This document shows positions 5,903 through 36,486 of a DNA stretch of 64,000 nucleotides, piece by piece (positions within the stretch are counted from its first letter, which is position 1; each line of letters opens with the position of its first letter). The translations under genes were made by a program, and so were the position numbers. The notes under the pieces were generated by a model that saw nothing but the letters and a program-made list of their open reading frames with translations, did not search any database and was not told the DNA's origin. The DNA is from Polyangium jinanense (lineage in GTDB: Bacteria > Myxococcota_A > Polyangia > Polyangiales > Polyangiaceae): positions 166,900-230,899 of the forward strand of contig NZ_JAGTJK010000012.1 in NCBI RefSeq assembly GCF_028435265.1, written 5' to 3'.

Positions 5903-7912
5903 ATGGCAGCCGTTGAACCGATGGCATTGCCCCCGGATTTTAATCCCGAAACCCTCATGCGCAGCACGAGCACCGAGGTGGGGACCTTCCACGAAACTCG
6001 GCTGGCGGCCCGGCTGGCGGCCCAACTGCTTGCCCATGGTGCGGTCCAGGATATCGAGCTTTCGGAACGTATCCTGGTGGCTGTGCTGCGCTGTCAGGAA
6101 CGGGATGAGCGCGACCCCCACTACGGAAACTTCTACTGGATGCGGGAGGATGAGGTCGTCGAGGACCTGAATGCGGTCGAGTTCGTGCTGGAGGCTCTCA
6201 TTCCCATGATGCTCCAACATGGCGACCGGCTCTCGTCTGTGATGCATGACCGGGTGCTGGAGAGCGTTCGGCTGGGTCTGGAAGAGATCCGGCGGCTGGA
6301 TGTGCTGGTGGCTTATACGAACATTGCCGTTCTGGACATTCTCAATACCTGCCTGGGCGGCGAGTTGCTGGGCGAGACGGCGATCGCCGAACGGGGTTAT
6401 GACAAGCTGGTTTACTGGATCGCCTTTACCAACCGTTCAGGCCATCCTTTTGAGTACAACAGCCCGACCTATACCTCCATCACCCTGCGGGCGCTCAAAC
6501 AGTTGGCAGACCTGGTTCAGCACCGGGACACTCGCGTGCGGGCCAGGGCCATGGCTGCCCGGCTGGCGCTGAGCGTGGCCCTGCACCTTCACGCCGGCAC
6601 CGGCCGTTGGGCCGGTCCCCATAGCCGGGCCTACCATTCCACGGTGGTCTGTGAAACGCCGCCGGAGATCGAGCTGGTCCAGAGTTGGATCGCCGAGGGC
6701 ATTGTTCCTCCCTGGATCCAGGCGGTCCTGGAAGGTTTGCCCGCGGTCTTTCAGGTGAGCGAAACCGCGGAGCGCGATCGTGGATTCAGCTTCACCACCT
6801 ATCAGACCCCGACGTTTGCCCTGGGCGTGGCCAGCCAGCTCTACCAGGTTCAATCCAATGTCTGTTTGCTCCATTATCAGCGGCCGGGCGCAACCCGGCC
6901 CGGGGTTCTCTATACCCGTTATATCCTGGATGATAAGTGGTTCGGCGACTTCTACCATGCGACCGACCGGACCAAGCGTCGCAACCTGCTGGATGAAGGT
7001 CTCTTTTGGGGTGTCCAGCGCGAAAATCAGGCCATCGGTCTTTACACGCCGGCCAATATGACCGAAGGCAAGAGCGCCAAAGCCTGCCTGATCTGGTTGG
7101 ACCGGGCGCAGGTCGACGAGCTGTGGGTCGGCGAGCAGCGGGTCGAAAGCCTCCCCGTGCTCGTGTCGCCAGGGCAGGTGATCGTCGTTGGGAGTGGCGA
7201 TGTATATATGGCGGTGCGTCCTTTGACCCAGACCCCTCTGGGCCGGGAAACTCCCCTCGAACTCGTGGAACGGGACGGGGACTTGGTGCTCGAGTCGTAC
7301 AACTACCGGGGGCCATTCAAGCAATTCTGGGAGATGCACTGGCCCGGCTTCTTTTACGAGGGCCGACCCATTTGTTGTTTTTACCTGGAAGTCGCCGAGC
7401 GCCATGCCTATCCGGATGGCCGCGCCTTTGGACGGCAGGTGTTGCGTGGAACCGTGGAGGAGACGCTCGGGCCTCCCTTTACCTACGCAGCGGCAGGCGA
7501 ACGCGTCTATCGGGTTGCCTACCAGCGTGACGGCCAAGCGTTGGGCCTGGAGGTCGAGCTGATGGCCTGGAAACTCAAACGCCGCTGGACAGAAGCCGGT
7601 GAAATCGGCTGGCCCATGCTGGAAGCGCCTTCGGCCAGGCAGACGAATACCGGGCGGGTGGAGCTCGGTGAAGCCAGCCTGGTTTGTGGCCCTGAAGCAG
7701 CCTGGTTATGGGCGAGCCCGGAAAGCGGCCGCTGGGTTGCCGGCTATCTGGGCCTCACCCCGGCCCCCCTCACCCTGACGACGCCCCAGGGGCAGGTCGA
7801 GGTCACGGAGATGGGCACAGGTACCGTGGTCTGGGATCAGGGCCAGGTGACGGTGGAGGCTACCGGAGAGCCGGTGGTCAAGGTGTCCCTCCACCGCGAC
7901 GACCGTCAGTAA
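5903..7912 (+). CDS. hypothetical cytoplasmic protein (669 aa) on a lower-GC segment
   Basis: ATG at 5903 preceded by AAAGGAG RBS; no signal peptide; coding sequence is visibly less GC-rich (many A/T-ending codons) than its flanks; no motif I can name with confidence. Confidence 0.6.
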   Translation: MAAVEPMALPPDFNPETLMRSTSTEVGTFHETRLAARLAAQLLAHGAVQDIELSERILVAVLRCQERDERDPHYGNFYWMREDEVVEDLNAVEFVLEALIPMMLQHGDRLSSVMHDRVLESVRLGLEEIRRLDVLVAYTNIAVLDILNTCLGGELLGETAIAERGYDKLVYWIAFTNRSGHPFEYNSPTYTSITLRALKQLADLVQHRDTRVRARAMAARLALSVALHLHAGTGRWAGPHSRAYHSTVVCETPPEIELVQSWIAEGIVPPWIQAVLEGLPAVFQVSETAERDRGFSFTTYQTPTFALGVASQLYQVQSNVCLLHYQRPGATRPGVLYTRYILDDKWFGDFYHATDRTKRRNLLDEGLFWGVQRENQAIGLYTPANMTEGKSAKACLIWLDRAQVDELWVGEQRVESLPVLVSPGQVIVVGSGDVYMAVRPLTQTPLGRETPLELVERDGDLVLESYNYRGPFKQFWEMHWPGFFYEGRPICCFYLEVAERHAYPDGRAFGRQVLRGTVEETLGPPFTYAAAGERVYRVAYQRDGQALGLEVELMAWKLKRRWTEAGEIGWPMLEAPSARQTNTGRVELGEASLVCGPEAAWLWASPESGRWVAGYLGLTPAPLTLTTPQGQVEVTEMGTGTVVWDQGQVTVEATGEPVVKVSLHRDDRQ

Positions 7913-8520
7913 AAGAATGCCGCGCAGCAACCCTCTTGATTGTCACATTGGCCCGAAGGCTCCGTGCACGTCCCGAGCAGGGAGGTATTCGAGCGGCAGG
8001 CGCACTGCCACGTCCCGTCGGCGAGCCGCGCGCACGACGCGCGTAACTCGCCGACCCCGGCGCAGGTTGTCGCGCTCGTACATGCGTCGGGGGCGTCCGT
8101 GCCGCTTTGCCCCGTGCACGCGGCCGTATCGCTCCGCGTTTGTCCCTGCGCGCAGGCCCGGAACGCGTCCTCTTGGGCCTTGCAGCCGGCCGGCGGCACG
8201 ACCTGCGACGGCATACACGTGAAATCCGCTTTCTGATCCGCCCAGCAGCCGAGCAGGGTTTCGAACGCGCTTTCGCACGCCTCGCCCGCGTCGAGGTAGG
8301 CCGCGCAATCCTCCGCGCAGTCCGCCCACACGAAGCAGTTGATCTGCGAGACGTGATCGCACATCTCGCCGCACCGCGCCGGGGGCAGCTTCGGCTCGCC
8401 GCCGCCGCTGCCGCCCGTGCCGCTCGTCGTGTTGTTGGGAGGGGGCTCCTCCATGCTGCACGCGACGAGCCCCAAGAACGTCCCGAGGACGAGCATTTTC
8501 CAGCCGATACCGATTCGCAT
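7906..8520 (-). CDS. Cys-rich secreted lipoprotein, hypothetical
   Basis: MLVLGTFLGLVACS lipobox, Gly/Ser linker, then a domain with more than 20 Cys; 3' end overlaps the convergent 5903..7912 by 7 nt. Confidence 0.6.
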   Translation of the reverse strand: MRIGIGWKMLVLGTFLGLVACSMEEPPPNNTTSGTGGSGGGEPKLPPARCGEMCDHVSQINCFVWADCAEDCAAYLDAGEACESAFETLLGCWADQKADFTCMPSQVVPPAGCKAQEDAFRACAQGQTRSDTAACTGQSGTDAPDACTSATTCAGVGELRASCARLADGTWQCACRSNTSLLGTCTEPSGQCDNQEGCCAAFFY

Positions 8521-8565
8521 CGGGCGACTATAGGCCGGCGCGGTCGCCCTCGAAAAGCGCGTAGT

Positions 8566-10071
8566 TCAGCGCTTTCGCAGCTCTTCCGGCACGCGGGCGA
8601 ACGTCTCCTCCGCGTCGGCAGCCGCCCATGCAACCGTGGCCACGGCCCCGACGACTTGATCGAGATCCTCCTTCGTGACCTTGTCGAGCGTGTCGTTCGC
8701 CGTGTGGTGCACGTCGAAGTACTTCGTCGCGTCCTGGTGCAGATCCACGATCGGCACGGCCGCGGCGTGCAGTGGGATGAGGTCGGCGCCGCCGTGCGCC
8801 GGGCCCTTGTCGTACTGGATCCCGAGCGGCGAGAGGAGGCTCGCGATCCGCTCGGTCACGGGCCGTGCGCCTTCCGCGACGAGGAACCGCGTCATGTGCA
8901 CGCGGCCCGCGCCGAGATCGATCTCGAGGGCGAGCTGGTGTTTGTCGAGCTCGGCCGCGTGGTCCTTGGCGTACGCGACCGCGCCGCGCAGGCCGTTCTC
9001 CTCGTTGGCGAAGAGCACCACGCGGATCGTGCGCCGCGGCCGCGCGCCGAGGCCGAGCACGAGCCGCGCGGCCTCGACGACGGCCGCGCATCCGGCGCCG
9101 TCGTCGATCGCGCCTTGCCCGAGGTCCCATGCGTCGAGGTGCGCGCCGAGCAGGACGATCTCGTCGGGCTTCTCGCGCCCCTTCACCTCGCCGATCACGT
9201 TCGCGCTCTCGGCGTCGGGCAAGAGCTTCGCGCCGAGCGAGAAGCTCACGCGCACGGGTTTGCCCTGACCGACCAGCCGCGCGATGAGCTCCGCGTCGGG
9301 CACGGAGACCGCGGCGGCCGGGATCTTGGGGACGTCCTTGTCGTAGACCATGCCGCCCGTGTGGGGAAGCCGGTCGTGGTCTGTGCCGATCGAGCGGAGG
9401 AGCACGCCGATCGCGCCTTTCCTCGCGGCGGCGATCGCGCCGCGGTACCGGATCCCGGCGACCTTGCCGTAGCCCGAGCCGTCTTTCGTGCGGGTCGTGG
9501 GGGCCGAGTAGAAGACGATCTTGCCCTTGACCTTGGCCTCGTCCATGGCGGCCATGGCGTCGAGCGACTCGACCATGACGATCTCGCCTTCGAGGCCCTT
9601 CGCGGGCGTCCCGATGCTCCCGCCGAGCGCGGCGATCGCGAGGGTGTGGGCGTACGGCGCGACGATCCGCCCGCTCTCGGCACCACGCTCCCAATGCGGG
9701 ACCATGACCTTTTCGGCGCGCACGTTTTCGAGCCCTTTTTCCTTCATGGTCCGGAGGGCCCAGGCGACGGCGGCCTTGTCCCCGAGCGACCCCGCGAGCC
9801 GCGGCCCGACCTCGTCGACGAGCGAACGAACCATGTCGTACGCATGCGAGTCGACCTGCGCGGCGAGCTGGAGTTTGTCCACGTTCGGATCGCGTGGGAC
9901 GGGGGCAGGCGCGGGAGCGGCAGCGGAGGCGGTCGCGGGCGCGGCGGCGGCAGCGGAGGCGGTCGCGGTCGCGGCGGCGGGCGCGGGGATGCGCTCGGGG
10001 GCCGGGGTTTCCGCGGCCGAGCAGGCCGCGAGCGAGAGCGTGGCGAGGAGGAGTGCGCTTCGGGCGTACAT
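8566..10071 (-). CDS. M28-family peptidase with PA domain (aminopeptidase), lipoprotein
   Basis: LLLATLSLAACSA lipobox; HLDAWDLGQGAIDDGAG and FANEENGLRGA metal-ligand and catalytic regions typical of M28 aminopeptidases. Confidence 0.85.
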   Translation of the reverse strand: MYARSALLLATLSLAACSAAETPAPERIPAPAAATATASAAAAAPATASAAAPAPAPVPRDPNVDKLQLAAQVDSHAYDMVRSLVDEVGPRLAGSLGDKAAVAWALRTMKEKGLENVRAEKVMVPHWERGAESGRIVAPYAHTLAIAALGGSIGTPAKGLEGEIVMVESLDAMAAMDEAKVKGKIVFYSAPTTRTKDGSGYGKVAGIRYRGAIAAARKGAIGVLLRSIGTDHDRLPHTGGMVYDKDVPKIPAAAVSVPDAELIARLVGQGKPVRVSFSLGAKLLPDAESANVIGEVKGREKPDEIVLLGAHLDAWDLGQGAIDDGAGCAAVVEAARLVLGLGARPRRTIRVVLFANEENGLRGAVAYAKDHAAELDKHQLALEIDLGAGRVHMTRFLVAEGARPVTERIASLLSPLGIQYDKGPAHGGADLIPLHAAAVPIVDLHQDATKYFDVHHTANDTLDKVTKEDLDQVVGAVATVAWAAADAEETFARVPEELRKR

Positions 10072-19476: not shown

Positions 19477-21450
19477 ATGGTGATGTTCTCGCCCACGGAG
19501 GCCTTGCGGCCCAACTTGCACGTGGAGGTCGCGTCGGGGGACACGCTCGATGTGCGCAAGTTCCAGGTCACGGAGCGCGTGTCGGATCTCTTCGAGGTCC
19601 GCCTCGTGGCGCTCTCGCCGAACCCCGAGATCGACTTCGAGGCCGTGCTCGGGCGGGAGGCGACGTTCACGCTCTCCCGCGACCGGCTCCTCGCCTCCGC
19701 GTACCGCACCTGGGGCGGGATCTGCCATCACATCCAGCAGATCGAGTCGGAGGAGGCCGGGCTCTCCACGTACGAGCTCGTGATCGTGCCGAAGCTCTGG
19801 TTCCTCACGCAGCGGCGCAACCACCGCATGTTCCAGCAGCTTTCGGACCTCGACGTCGTGCTGCAGGTCCTCCGCGAGTGGGGCATCGAGCCCGTGCAGA
19901 AGGTCGACGCGGCCGCCTACAAGAAACGCAAATATCGGGTGCAGTACGGCGAGAGCGATTACGCTTTCGTCTGCCGGCTGCTCGAGGATGCGGGGATCAC
20001 ATTTTACTTCGACCAGCAGGGCGAGGACACGGTGCTCGTCCTTCATGACGCACCGCAGGACAATCCGCCGCGTGAGCCCGCCGTCCGGTTCGTGGACAAA
20101 CCGATGGTGGACAAGGATCTCGAGTTCGTGACCGAGGTGCGTGTCGGGCAACGCACGCGGCCGGGCAAGTACACGATCTTCGACCACGATTACCGGCGGC
20201 CGGCGAACTACAAGCTCATGGGCACGCACGCCGAGGGCGAGGCCTTCGAGCAGCAGATGGAGCGGTTTCATTACGTGCCGGGCGCGTTCCTCTTCCGCAC
20301 CGACGGGCGCGAGCCGACGCCGAGCGCCGACGACAAAGGCGCGGCGCGTCACGACGAGTCGGAGGCCAAGCGCATCGCGCGGATCCGCCTGGAGGCGAAG
20401 CGCGTCGAGGCCCGCAAGGCCACGTTCCGCACGAACCTCGTCGAGCTCCGGCCCGGGACCGTGATGCGTGTCGTCGATCATCCGCGGCGCGAGTTGTCGA
20501 ATCGGCTGCTCGTGGTGCATTCGACCTACGAGGGCACGTCGTTCGGCGAGTGGGTCCACAAGCTCGAGACGCGCAGCGCCGAGATCCACTACCGCCCGCC
20601 GCTCGTCACGCCGAAGCCAAAGGTGAGCGGCGTGGAGAGCGCGACGGTCGTCGGGCCCGCGGGCGAGGAGATTCATACCGACGAGTTCGGCCGCGTGCGG
20701 GTCCATTTCCACTGGGACCGCGAGAGCCAGATGAACCAGGATAGCTCATGCTGGATCCACGTGAGCCAATCGTGGGGCGGCGCGGGCTACGGCGGCGTGC
20801 AGCTTCCGCGCATCGGCCAGGAGGTGATCGTCGATTTCCTCGGCGGTGATCCGGACCGGCCCATCATCGTGGGGCGCGTGTTCACGAATCTGCAAAAGGT
20901 GCCGTATCCGCTGCCGGCGAACAAGACGCAGAGCGGGCTCCGATCGGCGTCGTCGCCGGCGACGGGCGGGTACAACGAGCTCATGTTCGAGGACGCCGCG
21001 GGCCGCGAGCTCATGCGGCTCCAGGCCGAGCGCGACTTCACGGGCCTCGTGAAGCACGATATGCGGTTCAACATCCAGAACGACCGCACGCACAACGTCG
21101 GCAACAACGACACGGAGTCCGTGGTCGGCGAGCAGTCGGTGAAGGTCGCGAAAAAACGCACGGTGCGGGTCAAGCTCGATCAGCAGCACCAGGTCGGGGA
21201 AAACATCCTCACGCAGGCGGTGAACGGCACGGCGACGCACATGTCGAACAAGGCGCTCACGCTCTTCAGCCCGGAGAAGATCGTGCTCTCCACGGCGCCG
21301 AACTCGTTCATCCTGATCACGCCGGGCAAGATCACGATCGAGGCCCCGCTCGTGCACATCAACCCGGGCGATACGTCCGTTCCCAATCCGCCGCAGCCCG
21401 ACGCGATCGGGGACGCCACGACCATCACCGGATACATCGGAGCGCCATGA
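19477..21450 (+). CDS. vgrG: type VI secretion spike protein VgrG (TssI), short form without a C-terminal effector extension
   Basis: ATG at 19477 with GAGGAGAG RBS (upstream 512 aa of the six-frame ORF is Arg-rich and antisense to the malic enzyme gene); gp27-like N-terminus; gp5 OB/spike motifs [11 protein letters not shown] and [24 protein letters not shown]. Confidence 0.9.
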   Translation: [657 protein letters not shown]

Positions 21451-22403
21451 GGGTTCGCAAAGTACGCGTCGACGGATTCCGGGGTTTGCCGGACCAGGAG
21501 TTTTCCCTGACCGATCCGCGCACGGACAGCGCCCACGAGCTCGTGGTCGTGACCGGCCCGCGCGCGAGCGGCAAGACGAGCTTCCTCGAAGCGATCGTCG
21601 CGGCGAAGGAGCAGGTTGGCCCGTATGGCCCCGCCGCGCCGCCGTCGAGTTTCCTGCGCCCCGGCGTGAGCACGGCGAAGGTGCGCGTCGAATGGGAGCT
21701 CTCGAATGGGGAGCGAGATCGGTACGGCACGGGCAAACGCGCATTCGTGAGCGAGTCGATCTTCGGCGACCTCGTGGTCGATCCGCCGGAGCCGGATCCG
21801 GCGCTCGCGGCGTTGCTCTCGGAGTACATCCCGGAGCCGGCGTTCGGGAAGGTCGAGTATTTCCACGCCTCGCGGAGGCTGCCCCTCGGGTCGACGATCG
21901 ATCTGTCGAAATCGGCCGGAGACAGCCTCGATCGTATGGTGAGGCTCGGCCGCGACGACACGAAGTACGCGGGGCTCGTGCGGTTCATCGTGGAGGCGGG
22001 GCTCGGGCTCGACGTGGACGCCGAGGGCAAACCAAAGCCAAAGGGACGCATCAAAAAGGCGTTCGAGGCGCTTTGCCCGACGAAGGAACTCGGAGGGCTC
22101 TACAAGGCGGGGGACGCGATGCTGCCGGTGTTCCTCGACGGACGGCGCAGGGCGTACAGCATCGCGCAGCTCTCGGACAGCGAGCTCGACGCGCTGCTCT
22201 TCGCGACGACATTCGTGCGGGCGGGCATCGGTCAATCGATCGTGCTCGTCGACACGCCGGAGAAGCACCTCGGCGACGTGGAAGCGCGCGAGTTCGTGAA
22301 GGCGCTCGCGACGCTCGGCGCGGACAACCAGCTCATCGTGGCGACGCAATCGGCGGCGCTCGTGTCGAGCGTGCAGGCGGATCAAGTGATCCGGCTCGGG
22401 TGA
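21447..22403 (+). CDS. ABC-class (AAA_21/AAA_15-like) ATPase coupled to vgrG
   Basis: ATGA overlap with the vgrG stop; Walker A VVTGPRASGKTSFLEAI; signature-like LSDSELDALLFA; Walker B/D-loop SIVLVDTPEKHLGD resembling the LIDEPENHLHP motif; 318 aa, no fused nuclease domain. Confidence 0.7.
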   Translation: MRVRKVRVDGFRGLPDQEFSLTDPRTDSAHELVVVTGPRASGKTSFLEAIVAAKEQVGPYGPAAPPSSFLRPGVSTAKVRVEWELSNGERDRYGTGKRAFVSESIFGDLVVDPPEPDPALAALLSEYIPEPAFGKVEYFHASRRLPLGSTIDLSKSAGDSLDRMVRLGRDDTKYAGLVRFIVEAGLGLDVDAEGKPKPKGRIKKAFEALCPTKELGGLYKAGDAMLPVFLDGRRRAYSIAQLSDSELDALLFATTFVRAGIGQSIVLVDTPEKHLGDVEAREFVKALATLGADNQLIVATQSAALVSSVQADQVIRLG

Positions 22404-22407
22404 GGTG

Positions 22408-22836
22408 ATGGCGGTCTACGAGGTCGACGAGTTTTCGTTCGAGGTGCCCGACGGGTACGTCGATCGCAGCATGAACCTGTTCACGCCGCCTGCGGGGCTC
22501 ATGCAGGCGACGCGGCAGAGCCTGCTCGTGACGCGGGAGCCGCGCACGGAGGAGACGGTGTCGCAGCAGGCCTCGCGGCTCGTGAAGGAGCTCGCGGCGA
22601 AGGTGCCGGGGATGAAGGTCCTCGGGCAGCGGGATCGTGCCCTCGGCGCGCTGCCCGGCCGGGAGGCGCGGATCCACGCGGTGCAGGGCACCGTGCCGGT
22701 CTATCAGCGATGTTTTTTCGTGGGCCATTACGGCACGTTGCTCACGGTCATCGCGACGTCGATGCGGTCGCAGAGCGCGCAATGCGATGCGCTCGTCGAG
22801 CGATTCATCTCGAGCTTGCGCCTGAAGAAGCGTTGA
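22408..22836 (+). CDS. DUF1795/DcrB-fold Eag-like T6SS effector chaperone (copy 1)
   Basis: about 143 aa; N-terminal YEVDEFSFEVPDGYVDRSMNLF pattern; sits between vgrG and a TMD-bearing prePAAR protein; the identical-length paralog follows. Confidence 0.5.
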   Translation: MAVYEVDEFSFEVPDGYVDRSMNLFTPPAGLMQATRQSLLVTREPRTEETVSQQASRLVKELAAKVPGMKVLGQRDRALGALPGREARIHAVQGTVPVYQRCFFVGHYGTLLTVIATSMRSQSAQCDALVERFISSLRLKKR

Positions 22837-22851: not shown

Positions 22852-23283
22852 TTGGGCTTTTATCAGACGCAGGAAGCGGGCTTCGAGCTGCCGGCGAACT
22901 GGACCGACGCGAGCATCAACATGCTCGAGTATCCGCGCCCGGAGGGTTTGATCCGGGTGGGTTTGTCGCGGGCCGAGCGCGGGAACCGGGACCTCGCGGC
23001 GAGCCTGGAGGAGGTGATCGTGGAGCAGCGGCGGAAGCTGCCGTTCTTCGAGCTCCTCGGGCGCGTGGATCGCGTCTGCGGGGGTTTGCCCGGGATCGAC
23101 ACGAGGGTCACGTACGAGGAGTCGTCGCGCAAGGTGTATCAGCGGGCGCTCTCGTTTGTGATCGGGGGGCGGTTCTTCGTGCTGGGCGTCAAGGGAACGG
23201 CGACGCAGGAGGCCGAGGTCGACGCGATGTTCGAGCGGGCGGCGTCCACGTTCACGTTACGCGCGCGGCCCTCGGGGGCCTGA
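22852..23283 (+). CDS. DUF1795/DcrB-fold Eag-like T6SS effector chaperone (copy 2, TTG start)
   Basis: TTG at 22852 after GGAGGAGGAG RBS; 143 aa, collinear similarity to copy 1 (YQTQEAGFELPANWTDASINMLEY). Confidence 0.5.
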   Translation: MGFYQTQEAGFELPANWTDASINMLEYPRPEGLIRVGLSRAERGNRDLAASLEEVIVEQRRKLPFFELLGRVDRVCGGLPGIDTRVTYEESSRKVYQRALSFVIGGRFFVLGVKGTATQEAEVDAMFERAASTFTLRARPSGA

Positions 23284-23296: not shown

Positions 23297-24442
<1,146 letters not shown>

Positions 24443-24444: not shown

Positions 24445-26715
24445 CTACCGCCCGCCGCGCCCCGCGGGCTGCGATTGCACCACGCGACCCAGTGCAAGCA
24501 CCCGCAGCGTGATCGGCTCATTGTCCGCCGGATCCTGCTGCGGGTGCGGCTCGGCAATGGCGCGGACGCGGAACTTCGGGAAGAGCGGCAGCTTCTCGGC
24601 GAGCGCCTCCGGCATGTACGTCGGCAAAGGCGATCCGCTGCCCAGAGAGAGTATTCCCCCGATGTGCTCCCCGCCGAAGAGCTTGCGCCTGAGGTAATGC
24701 CGCTCCTCGATCAGAATGCGCTGCGCCGTCGTTTCGAGGTAATCCGACGCGAGCGACCGATTGGCCTGGGCAAACGCCTGCCGCACGCGTGACAGCGCGC
24801 CCTCGAGCAGAGGCACCGCCGCGCTCCGCGGCCCCCGGCAAAGCTCCTCCGCCGCGTCGAGCGCCTCCTTCAGCCGCTTGTCCACCCCCGCGAGCTGCGA
24901 GGCCACGGCGATCGTCGTTTTCAGCGTCTCCAGCGGGTCGCAGGTCATCACGAGCTCGCCATTCACGAGGACGAGCGGCTGTTCGAAGATCCCATCCTCG
25001 TCGATGGCCTCCTCCATCACGCGGGCAATGCCGACCGCGTCGAGCGGAGGCACGCGGCCGAGCGCGCGCCGAATGTCGCGCCGATCGGTCATGGCCTGCG
25101 TCGGTTCCTCCGGTTCCTCGCCCGTGAGCCACTCCGTCGGGCGCTGCGGATCCCGCACGTACGAGGCCCACGCCGATTGCTGACGCACGCGTTGGGGGGC
25201 GCGCTCGTCGAACCAGATCAGATCGACGTATTCCGAGGTCGGCGCGCGGCGCCGCGCAGGTGCGCTCGTCGATATCGCGGGCGCGGCCGGTTCGGGGCGC
25301 GGCGCGGCGACGGCCGCCGCATCGGAGGCCGCCGCGAGGCCGCCGAGCGTCGCCTGGGCATCGTGCACGGGCGGCGCGACGGGCGCGGGCGGCACGGGCG
25401 CCGCGATGGGCACGGGCGCGGGCGGCGCGACGGGCGCGGGCGGGGGCGTATACATCGGCGGCGCAGCCGGGGGCGCGGGGGCCGGCGCGCTCAGCGACGA
25501 GGCCGGCGCACTCAGGAAGGGAAGGCGCCCGCCGGACGCGGGGGGCCGGGCCGCAGGCGCCTCGGGCGCGGGGCTGGGCGTCGACTGGAACGGCAAGACA
25601 CGCCCCGCGGCGGCGGCCTGCGCGAGGCTCGGATCGGCGATCGTCTGGGCCCGCGGCGGCACGGGTTTCGCGGATTTCGCCTCCGCGTCGTCGTTCGGGG
25701 GAATCGATTTTTGCGGGCGCGGCGGCGCCTCGGGCGCGGCCGCGGACTTCGAGGGCGGCGCGTTGTCGAGCCAGATTCGCACCTCGCCCGGTTCGTCGCG
25801 CTGGCGCATGGGGATCTGCGCGCGGAACGTCAGCGTGCAGAGCAGCCGATCGGTATCGATCCACAAGGTATCGGCGCGCATCGGCTGCGCGGCCGCGCCG
25901 CGGCCCTCGATCAGGAACACCGGCTGGAGGCCCGGCAGGTTCGTGACGAGCCGCGGCACGCTCGGGTGTAAGTTTTCGAGGATGATCCGCGCGTTCGGGG
26001 GCAGGAAATCGGTCTGCTGATCCGGCGGCGCCGCATTGAAATAGCGGAAATCGAAGCCGTCGGGGACGTGTGATTCGTACCAGCGCTCGGGCAAGCTGCT
26101 CCGGGCGAGCGCGCCGAGCCGCTCGCGCCGGGAGGGCCACGCGGGCGCGAGCGGGCCGAACCCGACGGGCTCGACGTAATCGGCGGGGGCGCGGACCGTG
26201 ACGCCCGGCCACGTGAGGTTCGGCACGCGCACGCGCCCCATTCCGTCGGCCCATCCCGCGCGCACGCCGACCGGATTCGCCGTGTCCGGACCACCGCCGG
26301 ACCGCTCGTAGACGAGCGGCATGCGCGCGAAGCGTTGCCCCTCGGCGAGGGATCCGTCGGGCTGGAACCAGCGATCCAGGGTGACCTCGATCGACTTGTC
26401 GACCTCGCCGACGATGAGCCGCGCGACGACCGAGCGCGCGGGGACCTGCTGCGGCGCGTGCGCGGAGCCCACGAGGAGCACGTCCGCGCGAGGCTTGAAG
26501 GGCACGAGGTCGCCGGGCGCGCGCAGGCTTCGGTTCGTGTCGTCGTCCCAGTGCTCGTCGGCGGAGGTGATGTCTTCTTGCGCCTCGGCGAGCTGGGACG
26601 TGCCCGGCGCGAGGGAAAACGTCGCCTTGCAGACGAGCGTGAACACCCACCCCTGCGAGCGGTTCGGCCAGACCAAAGGCGCACAGGGGAACGGGATGTT
26701 CGAGACGATTTTCAT
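24445..26715 (-). CDS. extended DUF2169-like protein (T6SS cargo adaptor family), 756 aa, with Pro/Ala-rich linker and extra C-terminal helical domain
   Basis: N-terminus MKIVSNIPFPCAPLVWPNRSQGWVFTLVCKATFSLAPG is the characteristic DUF2169 start as I recall it; T6SS island context; convergent, 2 bp from the PAAR-protein stop. Confidence 0.5.
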   Translation of the reverse strand: MKIVSNIPFPCAPLVWPNRSQGWVFTLVCKATFSLAPGTSQLAEAQEDITSADEHWDDDTNRSLRAPGDLVPFKPRADVLLVGSAHAPQQVPARSVVARLIVGEVDKSIEVTLDRWFQPDGSLAEGQRFARMPLVYERSGGGPDTANPVGVRAGWADGMGRVRVPNLTWPGVTVRAPADYVEPVGFGPLAPAWPSRRERLGALARSSLPERWYESHVPDGFDFRYFNAAPPDQQTDFLPPNARIILENLHPSVPRLVTNLPGLQPVFLIEGRGAAAQPMRADTLWIDTDRLLCTLTFRAQIPMRQRDEPGEVRIWLDNAPPSKSAAAPEAPPRPQKSIPPNDDAEAKSAKPVPPRAQTIADPSLAQAAAAGRVLPFQSTPSPAPEAPAARPPASGGRLPFLSAPASSLSAPAPAPPAAPPMYTPPPAPVAPPAPVPIAAPVPPAPVAPPVHDAQATLGGLAAASDAAAVAAPRPEPAAPAISTSAPARRRAPTSEYVDLIWFDERAPQRVRQQSAWASYVRDPQRPTEWLTGEEPEEPTQAMTDRRDIRRALGRVPPLDAVGIARVMEEAIDEDGIFEQPLVLVNGELVMTCDPLETLKTTIAVASQLAGVDKRLKEALDAAEELCRGPRSAAVPLLEGALSRVRQAFAQANRSLASDYLETTAQRILIEERHYLRRKLFGGEHIGGILSLGSGSPLPTYMPEALAEKLPLFPKFRVRAIAEPHPQQDPADNEPITLRVLALGRVVQSQPAGRGGR

Positions 26716-26819: not shown

Positions 26820-28109
26820 TCAATGGCAGCAGGTATTGCTGGCCCAGGCCACGCCGCCGCCGGACCGGTAGATCACGACGTTGCCGTCGTTCTGTACGGC
26901 GAGATTGGCGTAGTAATTCGACGAGCCGGCCGTGCCCGAGGCCCAGACGGGCTGGCCCGTGGACTTGTAGATCACGAGGTTGCCGTCCTCCTGCATGATG
27001 GCGCGGTCGCCGCCCTTGCCGTTCGTGCCGGAGGCCCAGAGCGGCGAGCCGCCCTGGTAAAGCACGAGGTTGCCGTCGCCCTGGAACTTGAGCTGGAAGC
27101 GGCCGTCACACGACCAGACCGATTGCTCCGCCCCGAGCCCCTGGCCGGAAGAAAGCCAGCCGCAGCCCGACGGCGACGCATACGCGGCGTAACGCGACCA
27201 GATGCCCGCGCGATCGTCGTCCGCGAGCGAGGTGTCGTTGCCGGTGTAATACGCATACATGGTCGCGGCCGAGTCGGTCGAATGGCCGAGGCCGAGGGCG
27301 TGACCGACCTCGTGCAGGGCGACGGTCTCGAGGTAGGCCGAGGACCAGCCCTCCGCGTCGTCGAAATGCACGTCGCCTCCGAGGCCGCCGCCCGGCGAAT
27401 AGGCGTGGGCGAGGACGCCGGACGAGCCGTCGAATGCACTGCTGCAGCCATGGCTGCCCGTGTAGAACCCGAACGAGATGTTCTCGCCCGAGCTCACCTC
27501 GGAGAAGCTCAAGGACGAGGAGGATCGCCACGAGAAGAGCGCGTTCTCGATCGCGGAGCGAACGGAGGCCTGGGCGAAGTCCGAGGTGTAATTCGCGAAC
27601 CGATAGGTCAGCGCCGTGGACGACCAGGTCCCGCCGAAGTGCGTGTAGGGGTCGATGTCGAGGGTCGGCACGACGCTCGGCGGATCGTAATAATCGGGGT
27701 GGCTGCAGCGCGGCATCTGCATGATTCGCTGCGTCGCGGCGTCGACGACGCCGGTCACGGGCAGGCCGTGCTGGGCCTGGTAGAGGCGCACGCCCTCTTC
27801 GAGGGCCTCGTCGAAGAGCTCCGGATCGGCCGGCTCGCGTGAGACGGCGGGCGTCCAGTCGGCGTAATGCTCGGCGAGCTCCTCGTTCTGGTAATACCCA
27901 TAGCGACGCAGATACTCGTACACGCCGCGCACCTCCGCGCCCCGCGCGCCGAGCCCGAGGCCCGCGGCGCTCTCGGCATCCACGGAAGCCTCGTCGCCGA
28001 GCGTCGAGACGTCGTCGCCCGCGCATCCCACGAGGGTCGTCGAGGCGGCCAGGGCGAGAGGCGCGAGAAACAGTGCGAAGCGGGAGTCGAAAAGGTTCGT
28101 CGAGGCCAT
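26820..28109 (-). CDS. secreted M10 matrixin-type zinc metalloprotease with N-terminal peptidoglycan-binding domain and C-terminal bulb-type (B-)lectin repeats
   Basis: ATG at 28109 (MASTNLFDSRFALFLAPLALAASTTLVGCAGDD lipobox; upstream 118 aa of the ORF is Arg/Pro-rich); HEVGHALGLGHS zincin motif; PG_binding_1-like YLRRYGYY; three QxDGNxVxY repeats. Confidence 0.85.
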   Translation of the reverse strand: MASTNLFDSRFALFLAPLALAASTTLVGCAGDDVSTLGDEASVDAESAAGLGLGARGAEVRGVYEYLRRYGYYQNEELAEHYADWTPAVSREPADPELFDEALEEGVRLYQAQHGLPVTGVVDAATQRIMQMPRCSHPDYYDPPSVVPTLDIDPYTHFGGTWSSTALTYRFANYTSDFAQASVRSAIENALFSWRSSSSLSFSEVSSGENISFGFYTGSHGCSSAFDGSSGVLAHAYSPGGGLGGDVHFDDAEGWSSAYLETVALHEVGHALGLGHSTDSAATMYAYYTGNDTSLADDDRAGIWSRYAAYASPSGCGWLSSGQGLGAEQSVWSCDGRFQLKFQGDGNLVLYQGGSPLWASGTNGKGGDRAIMQEDGNLVIYKSTGQPVWASGTAGSSNYYANLAVQNDGNVVIYRSGGGVAWASNTCCH

Positions 28110-28465
28110 GGGATTGATTCTCCGTATGCGAGGGATGAAAGCCCCTATCGCAACGGACATGCCACCTCGGCGGGGCGCGGGGCCCTTGGGGCGATCCTGT
28201 CGAAAGGAATGGTGTTTTCGGGGACGGGACGGGGGGCGCGAGGGCGGGGCGTGTCGAGGGTTGGAGGTGCCAGCCTCCAGGCATGGAGGTGGGAACCGCC
28301 AACGCGCGCCCGGCGGACGGGCATGGCGCCGGGGCGGATACGCTTGCCGGAGGAGCGCTCGGTCCGAGGGGAGATCCGTGCACACGGCACCTCGTGGCTC
28401 GAGGATTGCTGCGCGGGACGCGGAATCGCGAGCCAAGCGCTCGCGCGCAGCCATTGGGGGCAATC

Positions 28466-31340: not shown

Positions 31341-34300
31341 TCAGAGATCGAAGAGCTCGTCGTCCTGGCCCGCGTCTTCCTCGGCGAGGAGGGCCTCCGC
31401 GTGCTTGGCGACCGATTCGAAGAATTTTTGCTCGGGGGATTTCGGGGGCAATCGAGCAGCGGCTTCCCGGGCCTGCGAGCGGAGGAGCGTTTCGCTGCGC
31501 TCTGCCCGGGCGCCCGAGCGCGGTCGCGCCTGGCCCGTGACGACCGAGAAGAGCGCGCTCCGGACCCGCTCGAAGCAGCCCTCGCCGGTCGTGTGCGCGC
31601 GCCGGAGGAGCGTCGCGACGAGCTCGAGGTGCGCGAAGAGGAAGGTGGGCGGCGCCTCTTCGAGGAGCGCGGAGATCGCTTCGAGCTCGCTCTCGCCGCC
31701 GTCCTGCACCCACTCGGAGAGGACCTCGACCGTCGGTAACGCAAACGAGCGCGAGGCGTCGTGGAAGAGGCGCGCGGCATGGAAGCGGACCCAGCCAATG
31801 CGGGCCCGCGCGAGGTGGCGGACACGGCGCAGGAGCGGGAGCCACTCCGGCGAGCGCGCGAGGCCCGTGAGGATCGCAGACAAGCCCTCGGGCGGGAGCG
31901 GCTCGTACTCCTCGGCGCCCGCGACGATGCCGGACGCGGCGCGCGCGATGCGCTCGATGAAGAGGCCCGTGACGTCCTCGGGCATGCGCTTGCCGGCGTG
32001 GTGGAGGAAGCGCATCGTGGAGTGGCCGTCGAGGCTGCGGGCCGCGCCGAGGCGCGTGAGGAAGAGGATGATCTCCTCCTCGGAGAGCGCGCCTTCGGAG
32101 AAGAGGCCGCCCGCGTCGAGGGCGCCGAAGAGGGCCTCGGCGACCTCGGGGCCCTCGGAGAGGTCCACGCCGACCGCGAGCTCGACCGCGTCGCGTGGAG
32201 AGGACTTGGCCAGCGTGCGGAGCGCGCCGAGCGCCGCGCGTCGGACGAAGCCGTCGCGGTGCCCGAGGAGGTGCCGGAGCGCTTCGCGATCGCCCGGCAG
32301 GGGCTTTTCGACCCAGCGATGGAAGACCTGCGCGAGCGAGGCGCAAAGCGTGGCGTTGCCGCCCCCGACGATGCTGCCGACGAGGGCCTCGGCGCGCTCG
32401 GGCGAGGCTTCGCGGAGCGCGTGGAGCAAGGAGGCGACGTGCGGGCCGAGTGGGCTCTCGGGCGCGCCCATGACGGCCTCGCAAATGGTCACCGCCGCCG
32501 CCGGGTGCTTGCGGGAGAGGACGTGCAGGAGGAGCCGCGGCGAGCCGGATTTGCCCGCGAGCGCGAGGGCTTCGAGCGCCGCGCCGAGCCCCTCGGCCGT
32601 CTGCGCAGGCGCGCGGCCCTCGGCGAGCATCTCGTCGACGACGGCGCGACAGGCGTCCGCCGAGCGGCGCTCCGTGCCACGATCGATCTCGCCCGAGCCC
32701 GGGATCTCGCTCGGCGGCATGTCGATCAAGCCGCGCTGCGCGGGTGAGCGTTGCGTGAGGGCCTCGTAGAGCCTGCGCTCCGTCGAGGTCGGGACGTTGC
32801 CGAGGGCCGTCTCGGCCGCGGCGCGGACGTCCGGAGAGCTCGCACGCCGGGCCGCGCGGCGAAGCGCGTCGGCGACGGCGAAATGGACGAGCGGGTCGCC
32901 GGAGTTCGACGCGGCGGCGCCGAGCATCGCGAGGATCTCGAGCCGCTCCTCGTCGCGCCACCCAGGCTCCATCCGCTCGCCGAGCGAAGAACCACCGGAG
33001 CCGTCGGAGAGGACACGCTCGAGGCCGTTGACCCCCGAGAGAGCCGCGCGTCGTTTCGGCGATTGCGCGCAGCCGGAGAGCGCGGCGAGGGCTTGCTTCC
33101 GCAGGGCGCGGCGGCGCTCGTCGGAGGGGCCGGCGAAGGCGGCGCCCTCGGAGAGGAAGGTGTCGATCACGTCGAGCGGTGAGTGCTTGTGATCGTGCGC
33201 GTCGTCCGCGACGAGCCATCGATCGACGGCGTCGAGCAAGGACTCGTGGACGCCGGCAGGGCGCGCCGACGAGCGCGAGGCGAGCTCGCGGAGGACACGC
33301 ATGGGGTGATCGGGGTGCGGGCTCTGGAGACGGAGATCGTCGCGGCCGAGCTCCCAGAGGAGGTCGGCGGCGCGGGGCAAGTGCGCGAGGTGCAGGCCCA
33401 CGCGGCGCAGGATCGCGGGGAGCTCGTAGAGGACGGACACGGCGGAGAAGAGGGCGCTGGGGCCCCGCGCGGCCTCGGTCTGCGCAGGAGAACGGAGGAC
33501 CGCCGCGGCGAGGTCGAGCATCGCGGCGGGATGATCCGAGGAGAGCTCACGCAGGCCGGCGAGGAGGCGGCATCGATCCGCCGCCGAGGCCGCGTCGATG
33601 CCCGCGCGGACGTGGCGGAAGAGGGCGGTCGTGATCTCGTCGGAAGCGCCGCTCGGGAGGGAGGGGCCGTCGAGCTCGCCGGCGTTGCGGATGAGCGGGA
33701 CGATGGCGTGGGCGCCGAAGCGCTCTTCCAGCGCGCGCACGCGATCGTCGAGCGAGCCCGCGAGGCTGCCCGCGGTCAAGGGGCCGACGAGCGCGCGGTA
33801 GAGCGCGTGATCCGAGAGCGCGCCGGGGACGACACGCGCGCCGTGTGGGCCCCGATCGACGACGCCCGCGGCTTCGAGCGCGCGGAGCGCCGACACGAGA
33901 TCACGACGGCGACACCCGAGCAGATCCCCCGCGCCCTGAAGGAAGCGCTCGTCCGAGGTGCGCACCGGCGCGAGGAGCGCGACGAGCGCGAGCACGCCGG
34001 CGAGGAGTTTTGGATCCCCCGCGGCGGAGGAGCGGAGCAGGAGCAGCTCGTGGCCCCGATCGAGCGCGCATGCCGCGAGCTCGCCCTTGCCGAGCAAGAC
34101 GGGATGAATGGCCTCTTCCCGCACGAGCCGGCCGGCCAGCGCGATCACGAAGGGATGCCCCTCGGCGTGCTTGGCGAGGGCGGCAGCGAACTCGCCGGGC
34201 GCATCGCCGAGCACATGCTGCGCGGCCGCTTCCGCCTCGCTCGGCGAGAGCGCGCCGAGCTCGGGCAGGATGCGCACCAGGTCCGACGAGAGCCCGACCT

Positions 34301-34787
34301 GCGCGAGGAGCGCCGAGAGGCGCGGCAGGCCCGCGGGGCGCGTCGTCAGCACGAAGCGCACGTCGCGGCGATCGATCGCCATGGGCAGGAGCATCGCGGG
34401 CGCGGCTTTGCGGCCCGCGTCGTCGATCACGATCAGGCACGGGCCGGGCGGCAGGCGTGTCGGGGTCGGCGCGCTGGTGATGTCGGTCGCGAAGCGCAGC
34501 ATGGTGCCGACCCGCTGCGCGGCGAGGGCGTCGGCGAGCGCGGAGAGCAGGCTCGTCTTGCCGGAGCCGGAGCGCCCGGGGAGCACGGCGACGCGCGCCG
34601 GGCCGCGTGCGCTTGCGAAGTCGACGAGGGCCGCGAGGATTTCGGCGCGCCCGCCGAAGGGCAGCGCTTCCTGGAAGGGGCGGCCTGCGGCGAGCGCGCC
34701 GCCTTCGAACTCGCTCGGGCCAAAGAGCGCCACACCGTGCTCGATGTGGGCGTCCGGAGGAGTGGGGAAGCCGAGGGTCGTCTCCAT
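31341..34787 (-). CDS. STAND-type P-loop NTPase with a large alpha-helical repeat C-terminal domain (1149 aa)
   Basis: ATG at 34787; FGGRAEILAALVDF, then Walker A LPGRSGSGKTSLLSALA and Walker B PCLIVIDDAG; more than 800 aa of Ala/Leu-rich helical repeats; upstream 76 aa of the ORF is Arg-rich. Confidence 0.75.
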   Translation of the reverse strand: METTLGFPTPPDAHIEHGVALFGPSEFEGGALAAGRPFQEALPFGGRAEILAALVDFASARGPARVAVLPGRSGSGKTSLLSALADALAAQRVGTMLRFATDITSAPTPTRLPPGPCLIVIDDAGRKAAPAMLLPMAIDRRDVRFVLTTRPAGLPRLSALLAQVGLSSDLVRILPELGALSPSEAEAAAQHVLGDAPGEFAAALAKHAEGHPFVIALAGRLVREEAIHPVLLGKGELAACALDRGHELLLLRSSAAGDPKLLAGVLALVALLAPVRTSDERFLQGAGDLLGCRRRDLVSALRALEAAGVVDRGPHGARVVPGALSDHALYRALVGPLTAGSLAGSLDDRVRALEERFGAHAIVPLIRNAGELDGPSLPSGASDEITTALFRHVRAGIDAASAADRCRLLAGLRELSSDHPAAMLDLAAAVLRSPAQTEAARGPSALFSAVSVLYELPAILRRVGLHLAHLPRAADLLWELGRDDLRLQSPHPDHPMRVLRELASRSSARPAGVHESLLDAVDRWLVADDAHDHKHSPLDVIDTFLSEGAAFAGPSDERRRALRKQALAALSGCAQSPKRRAALSGVNGLERVLSDGSGGSSLGERMEPGWRDEERLEILAMLGAAASNSGDPLVHFAVADALRRAARRASSPDVRAAAETALGNVPTSTERRLYEALTQRSPAQRGLIDMPPSEIPGSGEIDRGTERRSADACRAVVDEMLAEGRAPAQTAEGLGAALEALALAGKSGSPRLLLHVLSRKHPAAAVTICEAVMGAPESPLGPHVASLLHALREASPERAEALVGSIVGGGNATLCASLAQVFHRWVEKPLPGDREALRHLLGHRDGFVRRAALGALRTLAKSSPRDAVELAVGVDLSEGPEVAEALFGALDAGGLFSEGALSEEEIILFLTRLGAARSLDGHSTMRFLHHAGKRMPEDVTGLFIERIARAASGIVAGAEEYEPLPPEGLSAILTGLARSPEWLPLLRRVRHLARARIGWVRFHAARLFHDASRSFALPTVEVLSEWVQDGGESELEAISALLEEAPPTFLFAHLELVATLLRRAHTTGEGCFERVRSALFSVVTGQARPRSGARAERSETLLRSQAREAAARLPPKSPEQKFFESVAKHAEALLAEEDAGQDDELFDL

Positions 34788-35040
34788 GGAGTATCGAGCG
34801 CGCCGCGGGGCGAGCGCGCAAAGCCTACCACGGGGGGCGCCTCGCCCGGCGAGGGTTTGGAGGCGATTCAGCTCCCGAGACAAAACTCTCGGGGGGAGAG
34901 GGGGGGCCTCACCCCCGCGACCGTTCCCCGCTGGGCCGTGAGCCGGACAGACAACATCCGCGCTCTTTGTCTTTTGTCTTGCCCGACCCGTTCGTCCTCC
35001 TGATAGATGGGCCACAGCTCATCGCAGGAGGGGTTTCCAG

Positions 35041-36486
35041 ATGAGGCGAGGGGATTACCTCGTCGCGGCGCTCGTCGTCGCGGCGCCGGGCGTCGTGTTG
35101 CCTGGGTGTTTGGGGTCGTTCGGGGAGGACGAAGGGCACGGCCGTATTTGCGCATCGCCTGTGGCAGGCGGCGAGTATTGCGTCTCGTCGAGCGAGGGGC
35201 CCGCGAGCGCGTGGAACCAAGCGGCGGCGCATGGATCTCGGCCCATCCAGATGTGGGCCGAGCGGCCAGAGGGGATGACCCTCGACACGCTGGTGACGAG
35301 CCCGCGCGATATGAATCGGTGGCTCGGGGATATCGATCAGGCCCTCGGGTATGTGCGCGACGAGGAGCGGTGCGCGGAGTCCTACAAAGCAAGCATGGCG
35401 CCGGGGCCGCTGAGGAACGCGCTCGGGTCGGCGCGAATCCGGCAAAATGAAATCCTCGCGGAAGAGCCGATTGACGCTGTGGGGGGGTTCAAGGAGGCCC
35501 TCGCGTCAAAGGGCGCAGCCGAGAAGGACCCGCTCGTCGCGGAGATCGCCGCGGATAAGCTTTCGATGGGCGCCGTGCAGGGCGTGCTCGATCAAGTGTC
35601 GCTCGATGTCGGGCCGCTGTCGGCGGCCTATGCGGATCTCGCAGCGGACTTCGCGGCATATCGGAAGACGGAGTCCGGGGAGCTTACTACGTACACGAAG
35701 CTCGCGGCGAAGGCGTCGACGGCGACCGTGACCGAGCTCGACGCGATCGAGACGGCGATCCTCGAAGCGGCGCATGACGCGAGCGCGGGGCCGCAGGAAA
35801 TGGCCCTCCGGGCGATGAAGCTCTCTGCGGAAATCACCCAATTCGAGGTCACGTCGCAGGAGGCGCTCGCGCCGCACGCGGATTTCATGGTCACGCATGG
35901 CGCGCAGAGCCCGGACATGACCTCCGGGGCGCAGCGCTCGATCCACGCGATGCTCGGGTATGTCGATCGGCGTATTGCCAGGAGCGACCGGGCGGCGATG
36001 TCGCTCCTGTTCGGGATCACGATGCGGAGGCAAGCGCTGCAATTGCTCGACGAAAGCCAATCCGTGCGGGACACGGTGGCGGAGGTGAAGATCGCGAAGG
36101 CGGAGGCGACCTTCAAAGAGAGCGCGGAGGCGCAGGTGCTCGCGGTCGAGCAGGCGCCGCCCCTGGGCGTGAAGCTATCGCTGCCTTACCTGGCGAAGCG
36201 GTATGACGAGGTCACGGCCTTCTTGCAGATGCGCCCGCTCTGCGAGCTGCCTTCATCATCTTGGCGCGAGGCCGGCTGCGCGGAGATGCGTCCGCATTTC
36301 AAGACGGCGGCGACGTACCGCGCGACGACGTTGCCGGGGCTCATCCAGACCGGGCTCTCGACGATGAAAGCGCAAGGGGTAGGAGGCGCGTTGCTCGATG
36401 CGGCGGCGGCAAAGCTTGCAGCGGGCGATGTGAAGGGGGCTGCCGTTTTGCATGATGCCGCTTTGCACGGCGCGGAGGGGGCATGA
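35041..36486 (+). CDS. alpha-helical lipoprotein, hypothetical; first gene of a three-gene coupled cassette
   Basis: LVVAAPGVVLPGCLGS lipobox; ATGA overlap with the downstream gene. Confidence 0.6.
   Translation: MRRGDYLVAALVVAAPGVVLPGCLGSFGEDEGHGRICASPVAGGEYCVSSSEGPASAWNQAAAHGSRPIQMWAERPEGMTLDTLVTSPRDMNRWLGDIDQALGYVRDEERCAESYKASMAPGPLRNALGSARIRQNEILAEEPIDAVGGFKEALASKGAAEKDPLVAEIAADKLSMGAVQGVLDQVSLDVGPLSAAYADLAADFAAYRKTESGELTTYTKLAAKASTATVTELDAIETAILEAAHDASAGPQEMALRAMKLSAEITQFEVTSQEALAPHADFMVTHGAQSPDMTSGAQRSIHAMLGYVDRRIARSDRAAMSLLFGITMRRQALQLLDESQSVRDTVAEVKIAKAEATFKESAEAQVLAVEQAPPLGVKLSLPYLAKRYDEVTAFLQMRPLCELPSSSWREAGCAEMRPHFKTAATYRATTLPGLIQTGLSTMKAQGVGGALLDAAAAKLAAGDVKGAAVLHDAALHGAEGA

Follow-up and report, generated by a model that had tools for sequence, protein, structure and literature searches.

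A compact PtuA-like, vgrG-linked protein family as a candidate accessory subunit of auxiliary type VI secretion spike modules

Directly behind the vgrG gene in a 64,000-nucleotide stretch of the Polyangium jinanense genome (contig NZ_JAGTJK010000012.1, positions 166,900 to 230,899 of the forward strand; hereafter the window) lies a gene for a 318-residue protein which is predicted to adopt an ATP-binding cassette (ABC) fold and whose family is consistently found next to vgrG. We tentatively interpret this compact PtuA-like family, giving the interpretation about an even chance of being right, as having turned into a dedicated, operon-encoded accessory subunit of auxiliary type VI secretion system (T6SS) spike modules, one that would act as a nucleotide-gated clamp or scaffold. 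A spike module is understood here as vgrG plus a PAAR or prePAAR effector gene, usually accompanied by genes for Eag chaperones.

The open reading frame (ORF) at 21447..22403 (+) is confirmed as a real gene, well beyond chance, on the sequence criteria of coding GC pattern, homologs of near-constant length and a near-invariant start methionine. Its product is 100% identical to a Polyangium jinanense hypothetical protein retrieved by the protein search. With its start ATG (21447) the gene reaches back over the stop codon of vgrG, whose ORF ends at 21450, so that both share 4 nt (ATGA; context GGAGCGCC-ATG-A), and a GGAG is located 7–10 nt upstream of this ATG. The codon-position GC of 0.69/0.46/0.87 corresponds to the coding pattern of a 67–70% GC genome and recurs as the same signature in neighbouring genes, e.g. 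in vgrG with 0.66/0.42/0.91, the window as a whole having 63–75% GC (2-kb windows). Long ORFs on the opposite strand overlapping the gene are the usual high-GC shadows. When 36 diverse homologs are aligned, nearly all of them share the start methionine.

The protein search yielded 125 homologs with a length of 300–342 residues, and an exhaustive profile search, at E<=1e-30, 266 representatives of clusters formed at 50% identity. All named family members belong to Polyangiaceae or Myxococcales (Polyangium, Chondromyces, Minicystis) within the Polyangia (Myxococcota). The family gene is adjoined by vgrG in each of 10 independent annotated loci, whose proteins share 34–54% identity with that of the window. 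The gene order vgrG-gene-Eag(-Eag)-prePAAR/PAAR is present twice in Chondromyces crocatus (paralogs) and in the loci L010 and L011, while L013 displays vgrG-gene-Eag without a PAAR gene, L007 vgrG-geneA-geneB-Eag-pesticin-like-DUF2169, L003 and L008 vgrG-PAAR-small ORFs-gene, and L012 a vgrG divergent from a gene-DUF2169 pair. A scan of metagenome contigs with a P-loop-free alignment provided 80 further loci, which fall into two clearly separate sets: members of the family, and generic AAA_21 genes whose match is confined to the surroundings of Walker B or has <=27% identity. All loci were queried by tblastn for VgrG, Eag, PAAR and DUF2169 and classified automatically; of three borderline cases, L042 and L054 were manually moved to the family and L090 to the outgroup. 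Including the metagenome loci, vgrG was detected in 22/22 family loci whose sequence extends at least 2 kb upstream, compared to 0/17 loci of the generic AAA_21 outgroup, and a recognisable Eag in 23 of the 33 family loci that reach far enough downstream. In the 19 loci with vgrG directly in front of the family gene, the gap ranges from -4 to +62 nt, and an overlap of 4 nt as in the window is found again in L001, L010, L015 and L061. Thus, the co-oriented and often overlapping linkage to vgrG is conserved across 34–92% identity. No match to the family was obtained among 50,697 phage records, and 72,556 plasmids contained one partial match only and no full-length relative. The strict linkage to vgrG and the absence of full-length relatives from the phage and plasmid records are the opposite of what would be expected of a gene inserted by chance or of a mobile gene for defence. 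The sequence-only reading had correctly placed the gene between vgrG and the Eag chaperone genes but considered this position unusual; judged from the homologous loci, it is a conserved arrangement of the whole family and not a one-off, and the chance insertion that had been considered is contradicted by the linkage.

The AlphaFold2 model of the 318-residue protein (predicted local distance difference test 93.2, predicted template modelling score 0.92) has the two-lobed architecture of an ABC head, in which Walker A, signature, Walker B and D-loop are all present. Fold comparison gave the highest scores for PtuA of retron Ec83 (24.6), of retron Eco7 (24.3) and of Septu (24.1), with 283–284 of the 318 residues aligned across the PtuA matches at 17–19% identity. 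Lower scores were found for SMC/Rad50 heads (ca. 15–17.6), AriA (16.4), RecF (ca. 15), OLD (13.0), GajA (12.7) and the nucleotide-binding domains (NBDs) of ABC transporters (ca. 11–12). At the profile level, the protein matches Pfam AAA_21 with 29.5 bits (cutoff 27) and, N-terminally, AAA_15, AAA_23 and SMC_N, and PADLOC indicated partial matches to AriAB (1.8e-16), PtuA (5.4e-16), GajA and others. No NCBIfam model comes near its cutoff, PtuA NF041760 reaching 17.4 bits versus 500, and no curated Pfam or NCBIfam family covers the vgrG-linked family beyond the generic AAA_21. As modelled, the protein is therefore reduced to the nucleotide-binding head of ABC/SMC type; it falls in the PtuA/AAA_21 clade and has PtuA as its closest structural relative. 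The head accounts for all 318 residues and both model and fold comparison lack a nuclease domain. The ORF with its ATGA overlap, the AAA_15/AAA_21 likeness and the lack of a fused nuclease had all been pointed out by the sequence-only reading and are borne out, as are the three nucleotide-binding motifs it recognised, i.e. Walker A, LSDSE and the hhhhVDTPEKHL Walker B/D-loop.

The conservation of these motifs was counted over 115 full-length homologs, and equivalent residues were identified by aligning profiles with UvrA, Rad50, PtuA and AriA; these assignments rest on the profile search, as a single-sequence search of the PDB with the C-terminal 94 residues gave spurious matches only. The Walker A motif or P-loop G37-P-R-A-S-G42-K43-T44 (21555..21578 (+)) is virtually invariant, with G37, G42 and K43 each found in 115/115 and T44 in 114/115 sequences. 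The ABC signature-like segment L242-S-D-S-E246 (22170..22184 (+)), which aligns with the LSGGE/LSDG/LSQGE signature of UvrA, PtuA and AriA, is likewise well conserved (L242 110/115, S243 98/115, S/G245 105/115, E246 110/115). In the Walker B and D-loop segment S-I-V-L-V-D269-T270-P-E272-K-H-L (SIVLVDTPEKHL; residues 264–275; 22236..22271 (+)), D269, P271 and E272 are present in all 115 homologs, and its D-t-P-E aligns with D-E-P-T of UvrA/Rad50 and with D-E-[VI]-D of PtuA (LIDEVD/LIDEID). The position of the catalytic glutamate, 270, is a threonine in the window protein and in the family mostly occupied by other residues (T 81, S 11, R 7, E 7 and G 3 of 115). The H-loop (switch) N294-Q-L-I-V-A-T-Q301-S (22326..22352 (+)) is degenerate as well. 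Its A-T-r-S aligns with TTHS of PtuA, CTHS of AriA and VEH/VSH of UvrA/Rad50, and the position of the histidine is taken by Gln301 in the window protein and by no histidine in any of the 115 homologs (R 42, G 36, Q 12). By comparison, the generic AAA_21 outgroup genes in motif-matched loci keep the glutamate of IDEPE in 10/10 and the H-loop histidine (ATHS) in 7/10 cases.

The window protein thus lacks both elements of the hydrolysis machinery. In ABC-ATPases, the loss of the Walker B glutamate or of the switch histidine leaves ATP binding and ATP-sandwich dimers intact and cripples hydrolysis. Because the family has retained the motifs for ATP binding and dimerisation and lost the glutamate and histidine, it is predicted to bind ATP and to dimerise with a slow or no turnover. 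For the same reason the term "ATPase" may be a misnomer; of this label in the sequence-only reading the ABC fold stands, and the hydrolysis that it implies is doubtful, the replacements by Thr270 and Gln301 having been overlooked. Relevant precedents come from PtuA itself: the E396Q variant of Ec78 PtuA, which corresponds to the lost glutamate, is an ATPase-deficient mutant, and the stand-alone Septu PtuA keeps ATP bound but unhydrolysed and scaffolds or sequesters PtuB (PMC12819146).

Further hints come from gene duplications. In a P0120-like subclade the family gene occurs as tandem paralogs, exemplified by L007, where the two copies (8001–8927 and 8924–9841) overlap by 4 nt and are inserted between vgrG and Eag; the second copy matches the family profile with an hhalign probability of 100%. 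Tandem copies are also found in L023, L044 and L052. Such overlapping tandem paralogs, presumptive heterodimers, are what a heterodimeric ABC pair would be expected to look like. Among the top 150 of the 266 representatives no N-terminal extension was detected, so that none of them is fused at this end to PAAR, VgrG, Hcp or another delivery domain.

Several variants of the family architecture deserve description. Some members (P0199, P0229, P0260, P0155 and that of L042 at ca. 826–2736) are extended C-terminally by a Pro/Ala-rich tail in which 'ALPF'-like motifs are repeated and which in P0199, P0229 and P0260 terminates in a conserved helical domain of about 70 residues ('LSxEQYAS…W…') without Pfam match. 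The same tail and domain are encoded in L008 as a separate gene (9038–10024) directly downstream of the family gene. The combination of tail and helical domain may represent a cytoplasmic tethering or recruitment module rather than a toxin. L040, a metagenome contig of 8178 bp, contains two vgrG genes in tandem (2156–4567 and 4596–6866), followed by Eag and a family member (ca. 7709–8176), and another family member at 80–970; it thus harbours several spike modules and the order is reversed to Eag-then-ATPase.

The following mechanistic picture may be drawn. The family protein would bind ATP and form a head-to-head dimer, or a heterodimer where two paralogs exist, and would hydrolyse ATP slowly or not at all. 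As a cytoplasmic, nucleotide-gated clamp or scaffold it would hold or assemble the VgrG trimer with the PAAR- or Eag-bound effector; the loaded spike would subsequently be handed over to the baseplate and the family protein be released without being secreted. Such a scaffold role may be likened to that of stand-alone Septu PtuA as an ATP-binding, non-hydrolysing scaffold that sequesters its partner. A spike-centred role appears likelier than an Eag-specific one because the invariant partner is vgrG, usually together with a PAAR-domain protein. A more far-reaching version, which we regard as possible but rather doubtful, would make the family the first nucleotide-dependent component of T6SS effector loading, i.e. 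an ATP-gated and essentially non-hydrolysing ABC-type clamp, a homo- or heterodimer, that binds the VgrG trimer or a PAAR-Eag-effector pre-complex and whose ATP state licenses either the completion of the spike or the release of Eag from the effector transmembrane domain (TMD). The release of effector transmembrane segments by Eag before firing is an acknowledged open question, for which baseplate/membrane-complex proteins or TssM have been proposed (PMC12881460). In lineages having the gene, the family protein is a candidate for this step.

Several observations weigh against a clamp or scaffold of the spike module. A search of the window for T6SS core genes found none. About 30% of the family loci have no recognisable Eag, and in L003 and L008 the gene is positioned after PAAR and small unknown ORFs, which makes an Eag-specific role unlikely. 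The small ORFs that replace Eag in L003 (168 residues), L008 (190 and 212 residues) and L012 (239 residues) were considered as cryptic Eag proteins and rejected, as they gave no Pfam match and an hhalign probability below 1% versus the Eag alignment. Furthermore, no C-terminal motif common to all family-linked VgrGs, which might have served for docking, was found. VgrGs of the closest clade (window 21300–21450; L001, L015, L017, L018) carry a short extension behind the β-helix ending with '…PPQP…G[YF][IF]GAP', and the more distant family-linked ones terminate right after the β-helix without it. Finally, a minority of the family keeps Glu270 (7/115 homologs; 9/44 motif matches in the metagenome loci), and the role of catalytic base might be taken over by the invariant E272 or by another residue, which would confer real ATPase activity.

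Among the options left by the sequence-only reading, a dedicated T6SS accessory protein is favoured by the linkage to vgrG in all 22 evaluable loci, an effector is weakened and an embedded defence gene largely excluded. A role that had not been listed, and which we judge unlikely, is that of a sensor of ATP level or state that gates the use of the spike: VgrG or the effector would be sequestered while ATP is bound and released upon a fall in ATP or another signal. Such a function would suit the structural kinship with PtuA and the loss of hydrolytic residues, which befits a binder or sensor better than a motor; moreover, Septu PtuA is reportedly regulated by ATP binding without hydrolysis and controls PtuB (PMC12819146). 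In L003, a PP2C phosphatase gene follows the family gene (9104–9826 (+)) and a Ser/Thr kinase gene is located upstream of vgrG (2516–3973 (-)). This arrangement recalls the PpkA/PppA threonine-phosphorylation control known in some T6SSs. The signalling genes were, however, seen in this one lineage only, the protein, being so closely coupled in translation to vgrG, looks more like a stoichiometric structural partner than like a regulator, and the present evidence fits an assembly factor equally well. Translational coupling to vgrG might also be taken as a mark of a cargo effector, as genes directly downstream of vgrG often encode such proteins; the protein would then ride on VgrG into target cells and be toxic by nucleotide binding or by sequestering a target. 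We consider this improbable. A candidate immunity gene is not adjacent, as no ORF lies between the family gene and eag1, which starts 1–4 nt later, and the family is uniform in length and conserved (34–92% identity) while the linked effectors vary between prePAAR, PAAR-DUF2515 and pesticin-like proteins. PAAR, VgrG or Hcp fusions, as known from specialised effectors, are missing among the top 150 representatives, and a tandem duplication forming a presumptive heterodimer is atypical of toxins.

The PADLOC matches to AriAB and PtuA and the PtuA-like fold might also indicate an embedded anti-phage gene, in the form of a PtuA/AriA/GajA-like ATPase that resides by chance in the T6SS island or hitch-hikes with it. 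This explanation has become very improbable. Neither the window nor the 10 annotated homolog loci contain a partner nuclease (PtuB/HNH, Toprim or other), which the sequence-only reading had thought might be encoded elsewhere in the island, and the NCBIfam PtuA score is far below its cutoff. The vgrG linkage is conserved in the family, while similar non-family AAA_21 genes never occur near T6SS genes; the 50,697 phage records lack the family and the 72,556 plasmids offer one partial match. In addition, the family has lost the catalytic glutamate (glutamine in AriA) and the H-loop histidine of PtuA, AriA and most AAA_21 outgroup genes. A separate canonical AAA_15/AAA_21 ATPase gene (415 residues) with a DUF3226 gene is located beside the T6SS island in L012 (11594–13662 (-)), and this couple, which is separate from the vgrG-linked family, has the appearance of a true defence-type pair. 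Practically negligible is the chance that the protein is a housekeeping nucleotide-binding subunit of an ABC transporter or a DNA-repair protein of the SMC/RecF type. Walker A, signature and Walker B are indeed present, and weak NCBIfam matches to RecF and transporter NBDs exist (E 1e-3 to 7e-2), but these placements are refuted by the profile results and by the gene context: the ABC_tran profile does not match, the NCBIfam transporter equivalogs give 14–16 bits versus cutoffs of 220–357, and the operon contains no permease gene. A housekeeping ABC family, which had been named as a possible outcome of profile searches, is accordingly not where the protein falls.

In the window, vgrG, the PtuA-like gene, two Eag genes and a prePAAR-PAAR gene form, judged from their spacing, a tight operon. 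It starts with vgrG (19477..21450 (+)), which encodes a T6SS spike protein of 657 residues (Pfam Phage_GPD 6.9e-71, Gp5_trimer_C 1.7e-23, Phage_base_V 7.4e-13) and whose start is most likely ATG 19477 behind GAGGAGAG. The family gene is followed after 1–4 nt by eag1 (22405..22836 (+); 143 residues; DcrB 1.5e-12; start GTG 22405 or ATG 22408), encoding a T6SS effector chaperone of the DUF1795/DcrB family, and by eag2 for a second such chaperone (22852..23283 (+); 143 residues; DcrB 3.1e-11). These two genes are the Eag neighbours predicted earlier, and behind them, as also predicted, lies the gene for a prePAAR-TMD-PAAR protein of 381 residues, the presumed spike-tip effector (23297..24442 (+); PAAR_motif 1.1e-10, prePAAR_I 0.0039). 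The intergenic gaps down to the effector gene amount to 1–15 nt, and no promoter- or terminator-like sites were found on the + strand inside the five-gene operon. According to translation and hydropathy, the prePAAR-TMD-PAAR protein consists of one N-terminal hydrophobic region (ca. 17–60), the PAAR domain (72–132) and a Gly/Ser-rich tail from about residue 255. A toxin domain was not recognised in it, its low-complexity tail comprising about 125 residues with a GC content of 0.72 at codon position 2. The protein has a single N-terminal TMD region, yet two different Eag genes are present in the operon.

Convergent to the operon, a gene for a DUF2169 (TvpA-type) T6SS adaptor of 756 residues (24445..26715 (-); Pfam DUF2169 5e-70) is probably part of this island; among the homologous loci, L002, L007, L010, L012 and L023 are flanked by DUF2169 genes as well. 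No immunity-like ORF was found between the prePAAR-PAAR gene and the DUF2169 gene. Upstream of the latter on its own strand, a 547-residue M10 metallopeptidase with a peptidoglycan-binding domain is encoded (26820–28463 (-)), and cell-wall enzymes likewise precede the DUF2169 gene in related loci, where L002 has a LysM-muramidase and L007 a pesticin-like lysozyme. This recurrent neighbourhood points to an additional cargo effector of the spike that would depend on DUF2169. The remaining window contains a large signalling or STAND-like NTPase gene (31341–35015 (-), 1224 residues) whose nSTAND_NTPase5 match of 28.2 bits is below the Pfam cutoff of 34, and five consecutive co-oriented ORFs of 481, 725, 383, 300 and 616 residues (35041–42803 (+)) without Pfam match at E<=0.001, most of which display a clear coding GC pattern. 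Directly downstream of these ORFs a MoxR-type AAA gene (42834–43859) and further on an ABC transporter pair (45955–48899) are located, followed by a Ser/Thr kinase gene (53641–55152) and an 877-residue gene with HTH_3 and AAA_16 (58709–61342 (+)), a second large signalling or STAND-like NTPase gene.

Among known systems, PtuA of Septu PtuAB and of the type I-A retrons (Ec78/Eco7, Ec83) offers the closest fold, albeit at only 17–19% identity. PtuA chains in the PDB comprise 456–552 residues, and their large inserted or extra helical regions have no counterpart in the 318 residues of the window protein. PtuA is partnered by the PtuB HNH nuclease or by a retron reverse transcriptase and noncoding RNA, whereas the partners of the window gene are vgrG, Eag and PAAR; PtuA possesses the catalytic glutamate and the H-loop histidine, both of which the window protein has lost. 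Neither the NCBIfam score nor an adjacent PtuB HNH gene assigns the protein to PtuA. In AriA (PARIS), GajA (Gabija) and OLD, a Toprim domain is fused (GajA, OLD) or encoded adjacently (AriB), and the window protein is devoid of Toprim or any other nuclease. The generic AAA_15/AAA_21 relatives differ by their context, which was T6SS-related in 0/17 loci, and by the H-loop histidine kept in 7/10 readable outgroup genes and in AriA. ABC transporter subunits are set apart by an ABC_tran match and an adjacent permease or substrate-binding gene, none of which is found here. The pattern of an intact Walker A and signature with replaced glutamate and switch histidine is shared with degenerate ABC sites and with E→Q or H→A trap mutants, which form stable ATP-bound dimers with little turnover. 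In the present case the degeneracy is fixed across a stand-alone, non-transporter family, and its biochemical consequence is deduced by analogy.

On the T6SS side, the closest functional comparison is provided by Eag/DUF1795, Tap/Tec (DUF4123) and DUF2169/Tvp proteins, which, like the family gene, are encoded in vgrG-effector islands and are specific to one spike/effector set. The family gene is situated immediately next to vgrG, co-occurs with Eag and DUF2169 genes and shows the conserved co-oriented synteny with vgrG and effector across divergent lineages that marks accessory genes of vgrG islands; an adjacent immunity gene as for cargo effectors is absent, and so are N-terminal delivery-domain fusions among the top 150 representatives. 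As a P-loop ABC-type head, its product is unrelated in sequence and fold to Eag, Tap/Tec and DUF2169/Tvp. To our knowledge, these adaptors and chaperones do not bind nucleotides and act without them, and the only ATP-using parts of the T6SS are ClpV and, reportedly, TssM. A paper on Tvp accessory proteins mentions neither ATP nor an ATPase (PMC13373197), and that on Eag release invokes TssM as the sole possible ATPase (PMC12881460). We found no paper in the open-access literature linking an ABC, AAA_21 or PtuA-like protein to T6SS vgrG/Eag modules. The gene arrangement suggests that a spike-loading module of the T6SS has gained a nucleotide-binding component.

If this proposal is true, an energy- or nucleotide-state-dependent step would be added to T6SS spike loading, which would also give a handle on how Eag-bound effectors are handed over before firing. 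The family is small, well-defined and compact (ca. 320 residues) and its model is confident, so that the hypothesis is directly testable, with K43, S243 and D269 as clear mutational targets in addition to the restoration of Glu270 and His301. The T6SS islands of Polyangia would be a source of unexplored accessory biology. In comparison with its structural relatives, the PtuA-type "ATP-binding scaffold" module, known so far from anti-phage systems, would have been recruited to a secretion weapon.

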